Notes under the pieces: generated by a model | The model's database searches: none | What the model was told of the DNA's origin: nothing | The model's input: the letters and a program-made list of their open reading frames with translations, nothing else | Shown: in pieces, positions 2,743 through 27,619 of the stretch | Layout of the letters: the number at the start of each line of letters is the position of its first letter | Numbering within the stretch: position 1 is the first letter of the stretch | NCBI GenBank assembly: GCA_044220615.1 | Contig: JBGAQR010000005.1 | Coordinates: 309,974 to 373,973, forward strand | Length of the DNA: 64,000 nt | Direction: 5' to 3' | Source of the DNA: Ferruginibacter sp. | GTDB lineage: Bacteria; Bacteroidota; Bacteroidia; Chitinophagales; Chitinophagaceae | Translations under genes and position numbers: made by a program

Positions 2743-3766
2743 TCACTTTCCTTTTTGAAGCGTTCATGTATTTAAGTAGCCTGATCTCTTTTTCGCTCAG
2801 GTGACGCCACTTGCTTCGCTCCACATTTTTTTTGGTGAGGTTGGCATACATCACCCGGTCGAGCCCCTTCACATCATAACCCAGGTGTTCAAATATGCGG
2901 CGCACAATACGGTTACGGCCGCTGTGCAGTTCAATGCCGATGATGGATTTGTCTTTGCTGTCGGCATAAGCCAGGCTGTCAACATGTATCATCCCGTCTT
3001 CCAGTTTCAATCCTTTTAAGATCTTATCAAAATCCGCTTTTGCCAGGGGCTTATCCAGTTTTGCTTCATAGATCTTTTTTATCTCGTAGCTGGGGTGCGA
3101 TAGCTTTTGTGTAAGGTCGCCGTCATTGGTGAGCAGCAAAACACCCGATGTGTTCCGGTCGAGCCGGCCAATGGGGTATACCCTTTCGGTAGTGGCATTT
3201 TTTATAAGTTGCAATACCGTCTTTCTTCCCTGCGGATCATCGGTGGTGGTAAGGTAATCTTTTGGTTTGTTCAGTAATATGTACACCAGGTTCTTGGTCA
3301 CAAATAATTTCTTGCCGTTGAAGACGACTTCATCGGTTGACTGAACTTTATATCCTGGTTCAATATTTATTTTCCCATTCACTTTTACTTTACTGCCTGT
3401 TATCAATGCTACGGCATCCCTCCTGGAACATATTCCACAATGCGCCAGGAATTTGTTGAGGGGCATGGAAGCGAAGGCTTCTTGTTTGGAGTTAGTCCCG
3501 CCTGAGGCGGGATGAGGTTTATGGTTTGTGCTTCGGCTATGCTCAGCATGAGTTTGAGGTTTGGAGCCGCCTTTAGCCGGTTTGATATTACTGGCTGCGG
3601 GCTTACCCGTTTTCTTCGCCTGCCTCGCCAGGTACTCTTCTTCTTTTTTCTTTTCAAAGAAGGCATTCCGTTCTTTACGGTATTTTTTCTTTTGCTGGCG
3701 TAACTCTTCTTTTACAACGCTGTTCTTCTTCTTAGCAACAAATTTCTGGAAAGGGGCCTGGCTCAT
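2723..3766 (-). CDS. rluB: RsuA/RluB-family pseudouridine synthase with S4 domain and a ~100-aa Lys/Arg-rich N-terminal extension
   Basis: 347 aa. S4-like LNKFLAHCGICSRRDA, catalytic PIGRLDRNTSGVLLLTNDG, and GRNRIVRRIFE. Overlaps the downstream synthase gene by 20 nt. Confidence 0.8.
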   Translation of the reverse strand: MSQAPFQKFVAKKKNSVVKEELRQQKKKYRKERNAFFEKKKEEEYLARQAKKTGKPAASNIKPAKGGSKPQTHAEHSRSTNHKPHPASGGTNSKQEAFASMPLNKFLAHCGICSRRDAVALITGSKVKVNGKINIEPGYKVQSTDEVVFNGKKLFVTKNLVYILLNKPKDYLTTTDDPQGRKTVLQLIKNATTERVYPIGRLDRNTSGVLLLTNDGDLTQKLSHPSYEIKKIYEAKLDKPLAKADFDKILKGLKLEDGMIHVDSLAYADSKDKSIIGIELHSGRNRIVRRIFEHLGYDVKGLDRVMYANLTKKNVERSKWRHLSEKEIRLLKYMNASKRKVSEKTEP

Positions 3767-7709: not shown

Positions 7710-7785
7710 TTGTCAGGTTGAGCTTGTCGAAACCGGTATGAGTATAAAGCGTTTTTAACCCGCCTTCGACAAGCTCAGGCTGACA
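7710..7785. terminator. REP-like inverted repeat TGTCAGGYTGAGCTTGTCGAA between convergent thiolase and hisS genes; probable bidirectional terminator
   Basis: Left arm at 7711-7733 and right arm at 7763-7785. The arms are complementary at about 19 of 23 positions, with a ~29-nt loop. Confidence 0.6.
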
Positions 7786-7804: not shown

Positions 7805-9172
7805 CTACAAATTCTTCAGGTAGTCAACCAGTTTTTCAAGCGCAACAACTTCCTGTACGCCTGTAGCCAGGTTTTTTACTGAACAATTCTTCTCTTCCAT
7901 TTCCTTACTGCCGATGATTATTACAAAAGGAATGTTTTTCTTTTCAGCATAAATGAATTGCTTATTGATCTTCACATTTTCGTGGTATAATTCACAGGCA
8001 ATGCCGCTGCTTCGGAGTTGTTGCATGATGCCGAAAGCAAAGCGGCTTTCTGCTTCACCCATATTAAAGAACAGTGCTTTTGTGCTTACCTGTAAATTCT
8101 CCGGGAACAGGTTCATTTCTTCCAGCACATCATATATCCTGTCTACGCCGAATGAGATACCAACTCCCGGGATATTGGGTACGCCGAATAAACCGGTAAG
8201 GTCATCGTAACGGCCGCCGCCGCCAATGCTGCCCATCTTTACTTCCTCAGGCGCTTTTGCTTCAAAGATGATACCCGTGTAATAATTCAATCCCCTTGCC
8301 AATGTAAAGTCGATGATGAGATTTGTATTTTTTGTTTGATCAAATACAAATTCCACTTCTTCAATTCCCTGCCTGCCGCTTTCTATTGAGCCGATCAAAG
8401 ACCGGATCGCCGATAGTTTTTGTTCGTTGCTTCCGGAAATGCTGAGATAGCGTTCAATTGTTTTTACCTGTTCATTATTCAAGCCACGTTGCTGCAGTTC
8501 TTCTTTTACTTTATCAAGCCCGATCTTATCCAGCTTATCAATGGCAATGGTGATTTCTGTCATCTTATCTGCACCGCCGCATAATTCAGCAAGCGCTGTT
8601 AAGATCTTACGGCTGTTAATTCTTAATTCATATTTCTTAATCCCCAACTGCACAAACACTTCGTGATAAATATTAGCCAGCTCCACTTCATTCACTAAGG
8701 AAAGACTTCCCACCACATCGGCATCGCATTGTGTAAACTCACGGTAGCGGCCCTTTTGCGGACGATCGGCACGCCATACCGGCTGGATCTGGTAGCGCCG
8801 GAACGGGAATGTGAGTTTGGTATGATTCATTGCCACATAGCGGGCAAAGGGAATGGTGAGATCGTACTTTAATGCTCTTTCAGTAATACCCTTTGTATTC
8901 TTCCCCTGCAATACTTTCTCAAAATCTTCTCTTAGTTGTTTCTCTTTTTCTGGATTATCCAGTCCGTTGTTCAGAATCTTGAAAATAAGTTTGTCGCCTT
9001 CTTCTCCATATTTCCCCATCAGTGTTTCCATATTTTCCATGGCCGGTGTTTCCAGCGGTTGAAAACCGTAGAGTTCAAATACATTTCTTATCGTAGAAAA
9101 AATATAATTCCTCTTTCGTACAACTTCTGCAGAAAAATCTCTTGTGCCCTGTGGAATGGATGGTTTGGTCAT
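7805..9172 (-). CDS. hisS: Histidine--tRNA ligase
   Basis: Motifs PQGTRDF, RYREFTQCDADV and GGGGRYD. Start set to MTKPSIPQGT (ATG at 9172). The 14 upstream codons of the ORF read through a repeat arm. Confidence 0.9.
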   Translation of the reverse strand: MTKPSIPQGTRDFSAEVVRKRNYIFSTIRNVFELYGFQPLETPAMENMETLMGKYGEEGDKLIFKILNNGLDNPEKEKQLREDFEKVLQGKNTKGITERALKYDLTIPFARYVAMNHTKLTFPFRRYQIQPVWRADRPQKGRYREFTQCDADVVGSLSLVNEVELANIYHEVFVQLGIKKYELRINSRKILTALAELCGGADKMTEITIAIDKLDKIGLDKVKEELQQRGLNNEQVKTIERYLSISGSNEQKLSAIRSLIGSIESGRQGIEEVEFVFDQTKNTNLIIDFTLARGLNYYTGIIFEAKAPEEVKMGSIGGGGRYDDLTGLFGVPNIPGVGISFGVDRIYDVLEEMNLFPENLQVSTKALFFNMGEAESRFAFGIMQQLRSSGIACELYHENVKINKQFIYAEKKNIPFVIIIGSKEMEEKNCSVKNLATGVQEVVALEKLVDYLKNL

Positions 9173-9174
9173 AT

Positions 9175-9640
9175 ACGTGAGTCGTGAATGGTGAGACGTG
9201 AGTTTAGTAAACAATCATTTTGCTAAGCATTTGAAAAGTTTTCAACATCAACGTTCCGGTTTCGGTTAATTCTTCTTTTTTAAGATATTCTAAATCAACT
9301 GCAATGTCAAAAATAGTGTCTATTTCAATTAATGAACCCCTGGATATTTCGTAAAATCTCCTTCTTTCAGCTACTGATTTTCTTGAACTTCCTTCAGCTA
9401 TATTTAACTGAACCGAAAGAGCCGCTCTTCTTAATTGTTGAACCATATTAAACCGCTCTTCATGTGGTAGTGATCTGGATATTTTGTAGCAGGCCAACAC
9501 AAAACTTTTGCCTGTTTTAAAAACATCCAGTTTGGTATGTGCCAGATCTAAAAACATAAAATTGAATTTCAATAATGAAGCAGAGAAATTTTATTTCTTA
9601 CGCTTGATCACTCACGATTGACGTTTCACGCCTCACGATT
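9175..9640. other. 466-bp inverted-repeat-bounded cassette carrying a four-helix-bundle ORF
   Basis: Arms are 9175-9203 (ACGTGAGTCGTGAATGGTGAGACGTGAGT) and 9610-9640 (ACTCACGATTGACGTTTCACGCCTCACGATT). Both are built from CGTGAG/CTCACG words, with roughly 22 of 29 positions complementary. The ORF fills the loop. Confidence 0.6.
9204..9557 (-). CDS. Four-helix-bundle protein (23S rRNA intervening-sequence protein family)
   Basis: Family motif QLRRAALSVQLNIAEGSSRKS...F..ISRGSL.E. ATG at 9557, with an alternative TTG at 9572. Confidence 0.8.
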   Translation of the reverse strand: MFLDLAHTKLDVFKTGKSFVLACYKISRSLPHEERFNMVQQLRRAALSVQLNIAEGSSRKSVAERRRFYEISRGSLIEIDTIFDIAVDLEYLKKEELTETGTLMLKTFQMLSKMIVY

Positions 9641-10074
9641 AGTTCGCAGGCTTCTTCAATGATGGTAAACACTTCATGGTATCCTTGCTCTGTTCCATAC
9701 CAGGGATCGGGCACATCACGGTCTTGCCCCGGGTAAACCTCGTTTAAAAACAAATCTACTTTAGTTGCGTCGAATTTATTGCGACTGATGCGTTTCATCT
9801 CTTCCAGCACATCGGTTGCCATGGCATAAATAAGATCGTATTGTTCAAAGTCGCCGGCAACAAAGCGCCTGCTTCGTTGCTGGCTGATATCAATGCCATT
9901 CTGCCTGGCCACTTTAATGCTTAAATGATGCGGCGGTTCGCCGGTATGGTACCCGTTGGTGCCGGCGCTTTCCACGGTCCAGTTCAACCCGGCCTTCCGG
10001 GCCTTATCCTGCAAAATACCTTCTGCCAACGGGCTGCGGCAGATATTGCCCAGGCAAACCATTAAAATTTTCAT
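9598..10074 (-). CDS. Low-molecular-weight protein tyrosine phosphatase
   Basis: P-loop CLGNICRSP and a DP motif (DVPDPWYG). Start set to MKILMVCLGN (10074). The last ~14 codons and the stop lie in the cassette arm. Confidence 0.88.
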   Translation of the reverse strand: MKILMVCLGNICRSPLAEGILQDKARKAGLNWTVESAGTNGYHTGEPPHHLSIKVARQNGIDISQQRSRRFVAGDFEQYDLIYAMATDVLEEMKRISRNKFDATKVDLFLNEVYPGQDRDVPDPWYGTEQGYHEVFTIIEEACELIVRRETSIVSDQA

Positions 10075-10087
10075 GGCGCAAAGATAA

Positions 10088-10190
10088 GCTGCAAGCCACA
10101 AGCTTCAAGGGGCAGTTTAATGAATAAGGTCTTCTTTATATTATGCTTGTCCCTTGTGGCTACTTTCCTTGAGTCTTCTTCCTTGTAGCT
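10088..10190. repeat. Word-level inverted repeat (GCAAGCCACAAGCTTCAAGG versus CCTTGTGGCT / CCTTGAG / CCTTGTAGCT) in a divergent promoter region
   Basis: The words CAAGCCACAAG/CTTGTGGCT and TTCAAGG/CCTTGA sit in opposite orientation around a ~33-nt AT-rich loop. Confidence 0.55.
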
Positions 10191-10252
10191 ATTCCCCGCT
10201 CTTTCTTTATGGAATCTCCATACTATCACATCTTACTACCGAACACGGCGCC

Positions 10253-14869: not shown

Positions 14870-14885
14870 AATCTGGTAATTAACC

Positions 14886-14965
14886 GATTTGAAAATTTGA
14901 AGATGATAAGAGACCTTGAATTCAGCAGGTATTAGATCATCACCAAATTACCAAATCATCAAATC
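14886..14965. repeat. Hairpin element in the nuoA-nuoB spacer (GATTTGAA / TTCAAATC word family)
   Basis: Left arm GATTTGAAAATTTGAAGATGAT (14886-14907) against ATCATCACCAAATTACCAAATC (14936-14957), 18 of 22 positions complementary. Flanked by GTAATTAA direct repeats. Confidence 0.75.
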
Positions 14966-14976
14966 AAGTAATTAAG

Positions 14977-15540: not shown

Positions 15541-15550
15541 ACTCCCTCCG

Positions 15551-15618
15551 CCCCCTAAAGGGGGAACTGGGGGTAAAATACTTTAATGAAATTAAAAGAT
15601 GCAAAGCCCCTTTAGGGG
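15551..15618. repeat. Two CCCCT(AA/TT)AGGGG palindromes in the nuoB-nuoC spacer
   Basis: CCCCCTAAAGGGGG at 15551-15564 and CCCCTTTAGGGG at 15607-15618. Each is followed by a TGGGG word. Confidence 0.7.
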
Positions 15619-15627
15619 TTTGGGGTT

Positions 15628-16125: not shown

Positions 16126-16128
16126 GTT

Positions 16129-16204
16129 GATTTGAAGATTTGGAAATTTGAAGATGTGCTGAAGCCATTACCAAATCACCAAATCATCAAATTTTCAAAT
16201 TGAT
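16129..16204. repeat. Hairpin element in the nuoC-nuoD spacer, same word family as the nuoA-nuoB element
   Basis: Shares the exact 13-mer AAATTTGAAGATG (16144-16156 and 14893-14905) and the exact 15-mer ACCAAATCATCAAAT (16178-16192 and 14950-14964) with the nuoA-nuoB spacer. Confidence 0.8.
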
Positions 16205-16209
16205 TATTT

Positions 16210-17975: not shown

Positions 17976-18401
17976 TTGAAGAAGTTCTTAACCATATTAT
18001 TCTTTTTTATTGCAGTCAACGGCTTTGCACAAACCGCAGATGAAGCAAAGCTGGTGCAAACAATGAAGGAATTTCACCAGGCCCTGGTTAATAAGAATAC
18101 GGTTTCTATCAACCAGCAAACAGATAAAGTGCTGAGCTATGGACACAGCAATGGCTGGGTGGAAACAAAAGCCGATGTGATCAAAGACCTGGAAACCGGG
18201 TATATCAGTTACCAGGGTTTTAAAGAAGACAGTATAACGGTTTCTATGAATGGTAATATGGCCAATGTCCGGTTTGTGGCAGATATAACAGCAACCATGA
18301 AGGGCGGAACCAATACCTATCATTTAAAAGTGCTGGAAGTGTGGGTGAAAAAAAGTAAACGGTGGGTGTTGTTTGCAAGGCAGGCGGTGAAGGCCCCCTA
18401 A
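17976..18401 (+). CDS. Secreted NTF2-fold (DUF4440/SnoaL-like) protein embedded in the nuo operon
   Basis: TTG start 3 nt after the nuoE stop. Signal peptide MKKFLTILFFFIAVNGFAQ. ~120-aa mature domain ending in the W.K...RW.L pattern typical of DUF4440-like proteins. Confidence 0.65.
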   Translation: MKKFLTILFFFIAVNGFAQTADEAKLVQTMKEFHQALVNKNTVSINQQTDKVLSYGHSNGWVETKADVIKDLETGYISYQGFKEDSITVSMNGNMANVRFVADITATMKGGTNTYHLKVLEVWVKKSKRWVLFARQAVKAP

Positions 18402-18423
18402 ATCCCCCCGAAGGGGACTTTAG
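18398..18423. repeat. Hairpin CTAAATCCCC-CCGAA-GGGGACTTTAG overlapping the DUF4440 stop codon
   Basis: ~10-bp stem with one bulge, read directly. Confidence 0.65.
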
Positions 18424-18488
18424 AGCCAGTCAACTAAAAACGATTTTTAATGTTGGTAACGAAAAATAAATTATAAAACGTAATTGTC

Positions 18489-18506
18489 CCCCGCCAGCTG
18501 GCGGGG
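18489..18506 (+). repeat. GC hairpin CCCCGCC-AGCT-GGCGGGG, followed by ATAGGGGCT and the nuoF ATG
   Basis: 18-nt perfect palindrome. The ATG follows at 18516. Confidence 0.8.
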
Positions 18507-18515
18507 ATAGGGGCT

Positions 18516-19872: not shown

Positions 19873-20331
19873 TTTCACGCAAAGAGCGCAAAGGAGCAAG
19901 GATGCAAAGAAGAGTATGACAGAAAACGAGATATCAAAAATAGTTTTTGATTTATGTGTATTGGTTCATAAAAAGTATGGGCCGGGATTATTTGAAAATG
20001 TTTATGAAGAAATAATTTGTCATGAATTAAATAAATTAGAAATCCCTTTCACCCGGCAGCAAGGGATTCCTTTGATACATGATGAAATTAGAATGGAAAT
20101 CGGATTCAGGGCAGATATAATAGTTGAGAATAAAGTCATTTTGGAATTGAAATCGATCGAGGCATTAGCTGAAATTCATTATAAGCAATTGCTGACTTAT
20201 TTGAAACTAACAGATATTAAATTAGGAATGTTGATCAACTTTAATGTTCCGCTTATTAAAGATGGAATACACCGTATTGTAAATAAACTATAAAACTTGC
20301 GCCTTTGCTCCTTTGCGAACATTGCGTGAAA
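19873..20331. other. 459-bp inverted-repeat-bounded cassette carrying a GxxExxY ORF; fills the nuoF-nuoG junction
   Basis: Arms are 19873-19899 TTTCACGCAAagagCGCAAAGGAGCAA and 20305-20331 TTGCTCCTTTGCGaacaTTGCGTGAAA, with 23 of 27 positions complementary. It starts 1 nt after the nuoF stop and ends 5 nt before the nuoG ATG. Confidence 0.65.
19916..20293 (+). CDS. GxxExxY protein (PD-(D/E)XK nuclease-like small protein family)
   Basis: 125 aa. GLFENVY signature and ADIIVENKVILELKS (D...ExK). Start trimmed to the ATG at 19916, because the longer ORF overlaps nuoF and reads through the repeat arm. Confidence 0.8.
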   Translation: MTENEISKIVFDLCVLVHKKYGPGLFENVYEEIICHELNKLEIPFTRQQGIPLIHDEIRMEIGFRADIIVENKVILELKSIEALAEIHYKQLLTYLKLTDIKLGMLINFNVPLIKDGIHRIVNKL

Positions 20332-22546: not shown

Positions 22547-22560
22547 TTTTATCAAACGAA

Positions 22561-22590
22561 TTGTCAGGCTGAGTTTATCGAAGCCGGCTT
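22561..22590. repeat. Solo arm of the TGTCAGGYTGAG..TCGAA family plus the palindrome AAGCCGGCTT, in the nuoH-nuoI spacer
   Basis: TGTCAGGCTGAGTTTATCGAAGCCGG matches 7711-7736 at about 22 of 26 positions. AAGCCGGCTT (22581-22590) is a perfect 10-nt palindrome. Confidence 0.65.
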
Positions 22591-22600
22591 AATAAACAAT

Positions 22601-23667: not shown

Positions 23668-23742
23668 CACGAATTGAAACGAATTACACGAAGTGATTTA
23701 AAATGGATAGTAGATAATTCGTGTAATTGGTGTAATTCGATT
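23668..23742. repeat. Hairpin element in the nuoJ-nuoK spacer (CGAATTACACGAA / TTCGTGTAATTCG words)
   Basis: Left arm 23668-23692 and right arm 23718-23742. An 11-nt block and a 6-nt block are exactly complementary. The element starts at the base after the nuoJ stop. Confidence 0.75.
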
Positions 23743-23757
23743 AATTAGTGAACTAGT

Positions 23758-24090: not shown

Positions 24091-24096
24091 GCCCCA

Positions 24097-24116
24097 TCTC
24101 CGCCAACTGGCGGAGA
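24097..24116 (+). repeat. GC hairpin TCTCCGCC-AACT-GGCGGAGA
   Basis: 8-bp perfect stem, 6 nt after the nuoK stop. Confidence 0.8.
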
Positions 24117-24162
24117 GAAAGGCAGGAGTATTAATAATATTTTGAAATAAAAACAAAAATTC

Positions 24163-24178
24163 TCCGCCAACCGGCGGA
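24163..24178 (+). repeat. GC hairpin TCCGCC-AACC-GGCGGA, followed by ATAGGGGT and the nuoL ATG
   Basis: 6-bp perfect stem. ATAGGGGT at 24179-24186 and the ATG at 24187. Confidence 0.8.
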
Positions 24179-24186
24179 ATAGGGGT

Positions 24187-27579: not shown

Positions 27580-27595
27580 CAAAACCAAATGGTGG

Positions 27596-27611
27596 TCCGC
27601 CGGTTGGCGGA
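27596..27611 (+). repeat. GC hairpin TCCGCC-GGTT-GGCGGA, followed by ATAGAGGT and the nuoN ATG
   Basis: 6-bp perfect stem. ATAGAGGT at 27612-27619 and the ATG at 27620. Confidence 0.8.
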
Positions 27612-27619
27612 ATAGAGGT

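Follow-up and report, generated by a model that had tools for sequence, protein, structure and literature searches.

What is a gene for a small four-helix-bundle protein doing between a phosphatase gene and hisS, enclosed by two inverted repeats, and how did it come to lie there? The question is raised by a 64-kb stretch of Ferruginibacter sp. DNA, here called the window. On its minus strand, the small gene and its two flanking arms form a unit of 466 nt that exactly occupies the interval from the phosphatase gene to hisS (Table 1). The arms are named according to the orientation of the enclosed ORF, so that the upstream arm is the one at the phosphatase gene and the downstream arm the one at hisS.

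Table 1. Features of the two window cassettes, of ORF-less hairpins in the window and of the counterparts in Xanthomonadaceae. Positions are those of the window unless a locus is named.
Feature	Position	Strand	Remarks
hisS	7805-9172	-	true start is the ATG at 9172
Downstream arm	9175-9203	-	four 7-nt words, ACTCACGTCTCACCATTCACGACTCACGT; abuts the four-helix-bundle stop; ends 2 nt before the hisS ATG
Four-helix-bundle gene	9204-9557	-	117 aa plus stop, ATG at 9557; PF05635/TIGR02436
Inner 5' spacer	9558-9609	-	52 nt, from the upstream arm to the four-helix-bundle ATG
Upstream arm	9610-9640	-	about four 7-nt words, AATCGTGAGGCGTGAAACGTCAATCGTGAGT; inside the phosphatase 3' end
Low-molecular-weight phosphotyrosine phosphatase gene	9598-10074	-	
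ORF-less inverted pair, CAAGG-type words	10085-10195	-	directly upstream of the phosphatase ATG; weaker fold, z -1.3
ORF-less hairpin	14870-14976		nuoA-B spacer; similar to that at 16126-16209
ORF-less hairpin of ~7-nt words	16126-16209	+	fills the nuoC-nuoD spacer; cassette design without a gene
Upstream arm, second cassette	19873-19907	+	begins 2 nt past the nuoF stop
GxxExxY / PDDEXK_3 gene	19916-20293	+	125 aa, between nuoF and nuoG
Downstream arm, second cassette	20297-20331	+	ends 5 nt before the nuoG ATG
ORF-less hairpin	23668-23757		similar to that at 16126-16209
Four-helix-bundle locus between accB and accC	L175:1984-2440, L176:1983-2440, L178:1984-2430		Xanthomonas arboricola, X. sacchari, Stenotrophomonas

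An earlier note on this DNA had described an inverted repeat around a minus-strand ORF of the four-helix-bundle family, and this description was confirmed. The arms pair over 28 nt (9176-9203 with 9610-9637) and are 79% complementary (22/28 positions). Their words read CGTGAGT / CGTGAAT / GGTGAGA / CGTGAGT. In the whole window CGTGAG occurs six times, four of them within these arms. The encoded protein matches Pfam PF05635 (E 2e-29, 102 bits, cut-off 33.8) as well as TIGR02436 (E 2e-27, 95 bits, cut-off 24). Its best PDB match is 2GSC (E 1e-17), which is XCC0516, a four-helix-bundle protein from Xanthomonas campestris. The cassette interior (9200-9600) has a G+C of 0.32-0.36, compared to 0.46-0.54 in the flanking genes. 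Scored by the procedure of the census described below, the flank repeat reaches z = 4.7 and is among the weaker arm pairs. The predicted RNA folds (both MFE and centroid) retain a long-range stem in this cassette and in the second cassette of the window, located between nuoF and nuoG; whole-cassette fold stability shows no gain over shuffled sequences (z -1.2).

The surroundings of the gene were searched for further signals. No terminator-like site was found among the phosphatase, four-helix-bundle and hisS genes in an intrinsic terminator scan, and the matches in sigma-70 promoter and intrinsic terminator scans stayed at chance level, with Bacteroidota promoters lying outside the models. A comparison to Rfam yielded no RNA family and no rRNA in the window, nor in 20 related loci without clear arms. 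Domain searches found no transposase domain at the window cassette, the PADLOC defence models gave no match for either the four-helix-bundle or the GxxExxY protein, and PHROGs gave no meaningful match. No direct repeats outside the arms were seen by inspection; the age of the insertion prevents a clean comparison between filled sites and empty ones.

The cassette extends into its neighbour. In orthologues without an arm the phosphatase ends in ..C-D-x-I-I-K-K-Y-x-x*, whereas at every locus with an upstream arm it ends in ..C-E-x-I-V-(R/K/S)-R-E..*. This difference indicates that the cassette replaced the native tail, and in the window phosphatase the residues past ..ACELI are encoded by the cassette. 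The proposal of the earlier note that the cassette donates the phosphatase 3' end thus holds, since the orthologues lacking the repeat also lack these terminal residues. It had further assigned the last ~14 codons and the stop codon to the repeat itself. This is correct for IVRRETSIVS, which is encoded by the upstream arm; the three codons for the terminal DQA and the stop, however, are located at 9598-9609 (stop at 9598-9600) and constitute the first 12 nt of the inner spacer. On the side of hisS, all orthologues have their start at the ATG corresponding to 9172. It follows that the longer ORF, which starts with TTG, reads the downstream arm in frame and that its N-terminal extension is spurious, as had been supposed.

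To what extent this packaging is shared by related genes was addressed by a census. The HisS scan, with one genome per species, provided 80 Ferruginibacter/Chitinophagaceae loci. By phmmer and jackhmmer, no other four-helix-bundle gene was found in the window and these 80 loci, and one further GxxExxY gene was detected. The census was for that reason drawn from metagenome contigs, where a scan with the window protein gave 80 further loci. The final set contained 61 distinct cassettes with enough flank, and a flank inverted repeat was considered significant at z >= 5. Such repeats are present in 43 of the 61 distinct relatives, compared to 3 of 189 ordinary control genes. The hairpin-loop packaging proposed from the window alone is hence general, and four-helix-bundle genes at other sites do possess paired flanks.

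The architecture of these cassettes is uniform. A period of 7 gives the best fit for 74 of the 86 arms, and the median arm measures 28 nt (four 7-nt words) in a median unit of 476 nt. The upstream arm precedes the ATG by a median of 53 nt, and the downstream arm follows the four-helix-bundle stop after a median of 13 nt. The polarity is constant: the upstream words are G-rich and the downstream words C-rich. The upstream neighbour has the same orientation in 35 of 37 cases, and the upstream arm begins a median of 2 nt past the stop of this neighbour. For the downstream neighbour this orientation was found in 29 of 35 cases, the other six being convergent, and the downstream arm ends a median of 7 nt before the ATG of this neighbour. 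The sites are junctions of housekeeping genes, among them mrdA-rodA, ftsK-pth, nqrC-nqrD, copA-recQ, hemH and hemL. Paralogues of the cassette thus occupy other gaps between co-directional genes.

The packaging is also common to two unrelated families of small ORFs, as the earlier note had argued from the window and as the four-helix-bundle and GxxExxY cassettes now both confirm. The arms of the nuoF-nuoG cassette are 35 nt long and 83% complementary. The close GxxExxY relatives examined (74-86% identity) are without exception located at the nuoF-nuoG junction of other genera, where the arms are conserved (TTTCACGC... and ...GCGTGAAA). The flank packaging was found at seven other nuoF-nuoG GxxExxY loci; L163 and L164 score weakly. 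In L004, a different GxxExxY gene is present at another site and is flanked by arrays of TGATT-type words.

Some variation was noted around nuoF. In L164:2390-3110, L165:250-900 and L166:100-750 each nuoF-nuoG arm is duplicated, giving two upstream and two downstream copies, with an extra short hairpin between the copies of the downstream arm. The gap upstream of nuoF holds other genes: a DUF4440 gene in the window (17976-18401), DUF4440 together with a 177-aa ORF in L161:93-1077, a glyoxalase-family gene in L162:585-989 and a methyltransferase in L163:242-1072. Such lodger genes seem to settle in the nuo operon preferentially.

The phosphatase-hisS site of the relatives bears on the age of the window cassette. 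In the HisS scan, 78 of the 80 loci have the phosphatase gene as the immediate upstream neighbour of hisS, and in none of them is a four-helix-bundle gene found in between. The comparison of this interval that the earlier note had called for thus finds the two genes adjacent, without the small gene, in 78 of 80 genomes, and it also brought solo arms and empty pairs to light. With metagenome loci included, 83 phosphatase-hisS sites were classified. Five are occupied (the window, L081, L082, L085 and L116), two have both arms around a gene-less loop of 128 nt (L050 and L055), ten have kept the downstream (CTCAC-type) array alone, immediately in front of the hisS ATG, and 66 show no trace of the cassette. 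A further occupied site, beside the 83 classified, is represented by L169-L172. In the 128-nt loops, a search for gene or leader remnants gave nothing above shuffled controls, so that a deletion derivative and a precursor are indistinguishable here.

The solo arrays are located ~30-40 nt before the hisS ATG (L003, L004, L005, L006, L007, L012, L014, L015, L016 and L029). In each case it is the C-rich, G-poor downstream arm that is present; the G-rich upstream arm never occurs solo (10 vs 0). That only the hisS-proximal arm survives in this way suggests that the array was retained as a hisS leader.

The occupied sites are scattered over the hisS tree and occur in lineages down to 61% hisS identity. 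In addition, the identity of the four-helix-bundle proteins tracks that of hisS (91% with 94-99%, 77% with 72% and 57% with 61%). Both observations speak for an old cassette that is often lost and against a recent insertion. Most likely, the phosphatase-hisS cassette is an old resident that has been vertically inherited and, in most relatives, lost, with solo arms or empty pairs as its remains. A recent insertion is not supported, as both window cassettes are old residents, inherited vertically at fixed sites.

The arms appear to share the history of the gene. The four-helix-bundle tree groups by site, and nGTGAGn words are common to the sister clades at phosphatase-hisS, ftsK-pth, mrdA-rodA and nqrC-nqrD. 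In 1.45 Mb of related DNA, no CGTGAG-type arrays were found away from four-helix-bundle sites. This combination of shared words in sister clades and absence from other arrays indicates that the arms descend with the ORF and that the arm words follow the phylogeny of the gene. The earlier note's description of a vehicle defined by structure and not by sequence is not supported in this form by the same data.

The copA-recQ site gives a closer view. Here, cassette identity correlates with host-gene identity (Spearman 0.65), and the arm words differ by clade (CGTGAGT/CGTCAGT, CGGCAAT or GGTGAGT), always on both arms. The arm words thus change in concert, with the complementarity being preserved. 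On the sense strand, the arm mismatches comprise 31 G-U, 43 A-C and 84 of transversion type, and no excess of G-U is seen. In view of this missing preference, it may be processes acting on the DNA, namely slippage of the arrays and copying from one arm to the other, that keep up the complementarity, rather than selection on an RNA helix. The absent G-U excess weakens an RNA role of the arms without excluding it. For the gene itself, differences at third codon positions exceed those at first and second positions about three- to four-fold, which shows that it evolves under purifying selection.

The same build was found in another phylum. In Xanthomonas and Stenotrophomonas a four-helix-bundle gene is located between accB and accC (Table 1). 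In all three loci (3/3), the upstream arm, located behind the accB stop, consists of four GGGAATC-type words, and the downstream arm, their complement, extends precisely to the accC ATG. The annotated start codon of the four-helix-bundle gene lies inside the upstream arm. The stem-enclosed design therefore spans Bacteroidota and Gammaproteobacteria. An arm of this kind can be recognized in the literature: the table of GGGAATC heptamers lists a 28-nt array of four units, 6 nt past accB, which overlaps the annotated start of XCC0516 (PMC4692102). Numbered 15 by Rehm et al. 2015 (PMC4692102), this array forms the upstream arm of XCC0516.

The design can be compared with several known systems, in the first place with the intervening sequences (IVSs) of 23S rRNA. 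The IVS of Coxiella burnetii has a length of 428-444 nt, a terminal-repeat stem of 28 bp and an ORF of the PF05635 family, and it is cut in mid-stem by RNase III; the IVSs of Leptospira and Salmonella are also cleaved by RNase III (PMC4990558). The Coxiella IVS is low in G+C relative to its genome, and S23p, the protein that it encodes, is apparently not made (PMC4990558). The window cassette resembles it in protein family, in the position of the gene in the loop, in its low G+C relative to the surroundings and in its dimensions, with 28-nt arms against a 28-bp stem and 466 nt (census median 476) against 428-444 nt. Terminal repeats that can form a stem of ~28 bp around an ORF loop of ~400 nt, a feature of the IVSs, are thus present. 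The defining location in 23S rRNA is not shared: the IVSs are found in helix 9, 25 or 45, whereas the window cassette is placed between protein-coding genes. The build from 7-nt words is known for the arms of the operon cassettes, the IVS stems having been compared by length. Cleavage by RNase III is a demonstrated feature of the IVSs, whereas for the operon cassette it is predicted. Finally, the Coxiella protein is apparently not made, whereas the operon gene is clearly under the purifying selection described above, which leaves the analogy incomplete.

The arms also resemble the inverted heptamer pairs described by Rehm et al. 2015, which consist of 7-nt units, usually four (28 nt), and are intergenic, begin a few nt past the upstream stop and are frequent inside operons. 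The census arms have the properties by which these heptameric inverted pairs are defined. In that study, however, the arrays are treated as G-quadruplex-forming, the loops measure 21-67 nt and no connection is drawn to an enclosed gene or to IVS elements (PMC4692102). The words of the Chitinophagaceae, in contrast, are diverse and mostly not G-rich.

A homologous four-helix-bundle fold is found in Avd, the accessory variability determinant of DGRs, with 2GSC aligning with Avd 4DWL, and PF05635 is the commonest family beside DGR reverse transcriptases (PMC10053308). The cassettes differ from this situation in that their neighbours are housekeeping genes (phosphatase, hisS; mrdA, rodA, ftsK, pth, copA, recQ). 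Neither a reverse transcriptase nor a template/variable repeat pair was found among the neighbours.

In RAYT/REPIN systems one gene has a short repeat, in inverted orientation, on its two sides, and the repeat is also dispersed in the form of gene-less intergenic hairpins. The cassettes share with these systems, and with MITEs, both the bracketing of a gene by inverted short repeats and the gene-less hairpins. They differ, however, in having no Y1 transposase and no target-site duplication that could be seen, in words that vary between cassettes and in copies that are stable at fixed sites. Literature searches found no published description of an intergenic cassette packaging outside rRNA, and a stem-enclosed gene cassette of the IVS type in operons does not seem to have been described previously.

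How, then, would such a unit persist within an operon? The reading considered moderately probable is that of an old, vertically inherited and often lost cassette of the IVS type, which resides in operons, rides in the transcripts of its neighbours and is closed by a stem of the RNase III type. According to this mechanism, the cassette would be transcribed together with the neighbouring genes. In the transcript the arms would pair to form a stem of ~28 bp, the base of which would bring the upstream stop and the downstream start together, and the 466-nt insert would be topologically silent for the operon. By analogy with the 23S IVSs of Coxiella, Leptospira and Salmonella, the stem would be a substrate of the type cut by RNase III. 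Cleavage would free the mRNA of the small gene as a stem-closed molecule. As the cassette leaves no room for signals of its own and no terminator-like site was found, we infer co-transcription, and likewise stem formation in vivo and RNase III cleavage. Because the downstream neighbour is convergent in 6 of 35 cassettes, the joining of stop and start is not a universal role.

Alternatively, the cassette could be a mobile element acting at the DNA level, which is rather unlikely. The arms would then form the two termini of a transposable or homing unit of a non-classical kind, recognized or processed as a hairpin or cruciform, and the ORF-less pairs would be its non-autonomous derivatives. The enclosed protein would act in trans, either as a four-helix-bundle nucleic-acid binder or as a GxxExxY nuclease of the PD-(D/E)XK type, in a manner comparable to RAYT/REPIN. 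Mobility as such we infer from the multiplicity of sites alone: related cassettes (71-79% identity) with shared arm words are found at no fewer than, that is at least, five sites (phosphatase-hisS, ftsK-pth, mrdA-rodA, nqrC-nqrD and copA-recQ), and the cultured Ferruginibacter sp. SUN106 combines an empty arm pair at phosphatase-hisS with a full cassette at ftsK-pth. The absence of a G-U bias in the arms would also fit a DNA-level process. The same applies to the period-7 arrays, which are greatly over-represented in related genomes (72, vs 0-12 for each other period from 4 to 12) and for the most part form inverted pairs with short loops in intergenic spacers. In addition, the Xanthomonas arms use the GGGAATC word, of which ~186 dispersed arrays have been reported (PMC4692102). 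However, the copies cluster by site and track the divergence of their hosts, so any movement must have been ancient and rare. Moreover, target-site duplications are not visible, neither a transposase nor a recombinase was found and the four-helix bundle lacks a catalytic motif. The confinement of the CGTGAG-type arrays to four-helix-bundle sites in the 1.45 Mb searched also means that the ORF-less hairpins are not obvious copies of the cassette.

Less probable still is an origin in host hairpins. Intercistronic hairpins of word arrays, with a role in mRNA stability, processing or translational coupling, would have existed first, and small selfish ORFs would have lodged in their loops later. 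ORF-less hairpins of the same build do occur in the nuoA-B, nuoC-D and 23668-23757 spacers and in relatives, and in Xanthomonas inverted heptamer pairs with 28-nt, four-unit arms are found in the groES-groEL, atpA-G, atpD-C and gltB-D spacers (PMC4692102). The two sites with both arms and no detectable gene remnant, as well as the solo survival of the hisS-proximal arm, can be understood along the same lines. On the other hand, the arm words follow the phylogeny of the gene across sites, which would be unexpected if the arms belonged to the site. The invariable polarity (G-rich upstream, C-rich downstream) likewise argues against this origin, and a mechanism that drops an ORF into hairpin loops is not known.

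That a hisS leader of low complexity and the 3' end of the phosphatase gene are complementary by chance, as the imperfect window pair (22/28, z 4.7) might have suggested, has a negligible probability. This reading is refuted by the census (43/61 vs 3/189), and the arrangement moreover recurs at the orthologous site in L081, L082, L085, L116 and L170 as well as in another phylum. The evidence speaks for arms that accompany the gene, with the mobile element and the host hairpin as less probable alternatives.

Beyond the old, inherited cassette of the IVS type, a wider proposal can be made, albeit a speculative and unlikely one. Inverted arrays of 4 x 7 nt and their small genes (four-helix bundle, GxxExxY and perhaps others) would constitute a hitherto unrecognized cross-phylum class of semi-autonomous genetic elements. 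The 23S IVSs would be the rRNA-resident members of this class and the gene-less heptamer hairpins its non-autonomous derivatives, with the proteins binding, cutting or copying the arrays in a RAYT/REPIN-like fashion. If this is true, these gene-less hairpins would account for the long-noted excess of heptameric repeats in bacterial genomes. The finding ties this excess together with the small proteins and with the ORF-bearing 23S IVSs, the origin and function of which have been enigmatic since ~1990. The four-helix-bundle and GxxExxY proteins are very abundant, with thousands of relatives, and uncharacterised. Should the stem-closed design indeed let a gene sit harmlessly in an operon or rRNA, this would amount to a general rule for tolerated insertions and offer a ready-made way of nesting a gene in an operon.

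Several other hairpins were encountered in the window and its relatives. The three ORF-less hairpins of the nuo operon (Table 1) fold with z-scores of -3.9 to -4.8. Pairs of arrays ~510-620 nt apart in L005, L009 and L069 were considered as further cassettes and rejected, as they are neighbouring short hairpins that flank nuoC. A second class of elements was noticed in the nuo spacers, at 15541-15627, 18402-18515, 24091-24186 and 27580-27619 of the window. These consist of two short G+C-rich hairpins (e.g. CTCCGCCAACTGGCGGAG) at the ends of an A+T-rich core, and their outer ends are complementary (GCCCCAT... and ...ATAGGGGT). For the element at 24091-24186, the fold is much more favourable than in shuffled versions (z -5.7).

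The build of this second class is shared by the flanks of an insert in L099. There, recQ (L099:2253-4694) contains an in-frame DUF559 domain (Vsr-like endonuclease; PF04480, E 5e-30) between DEAD and Helicase_C. The insert spans ~2878-3362. On both sides it has mini-hairpins rich in G+C and, further out, an inverted repeat (ACCTCACCCC... / ...GGGGATGAGGT), and these flanks are translated along with the rest of the gene. It gives the impression of a third family of small genes, with hairpin packaging of a second type and, in this case, within a coding sequence. Lastly, the 20-nt word GTCAGGYTGAGYTTRTCGAA is present at 7712-7731 and 7765-7784, the two copies giving a hairpin in the interval that separates hisS from the convergent thiolase gene. 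A single further copy is found at 22563-22582, in the spacer 22547-22600, which brings the matches to three where none is expected by chance.
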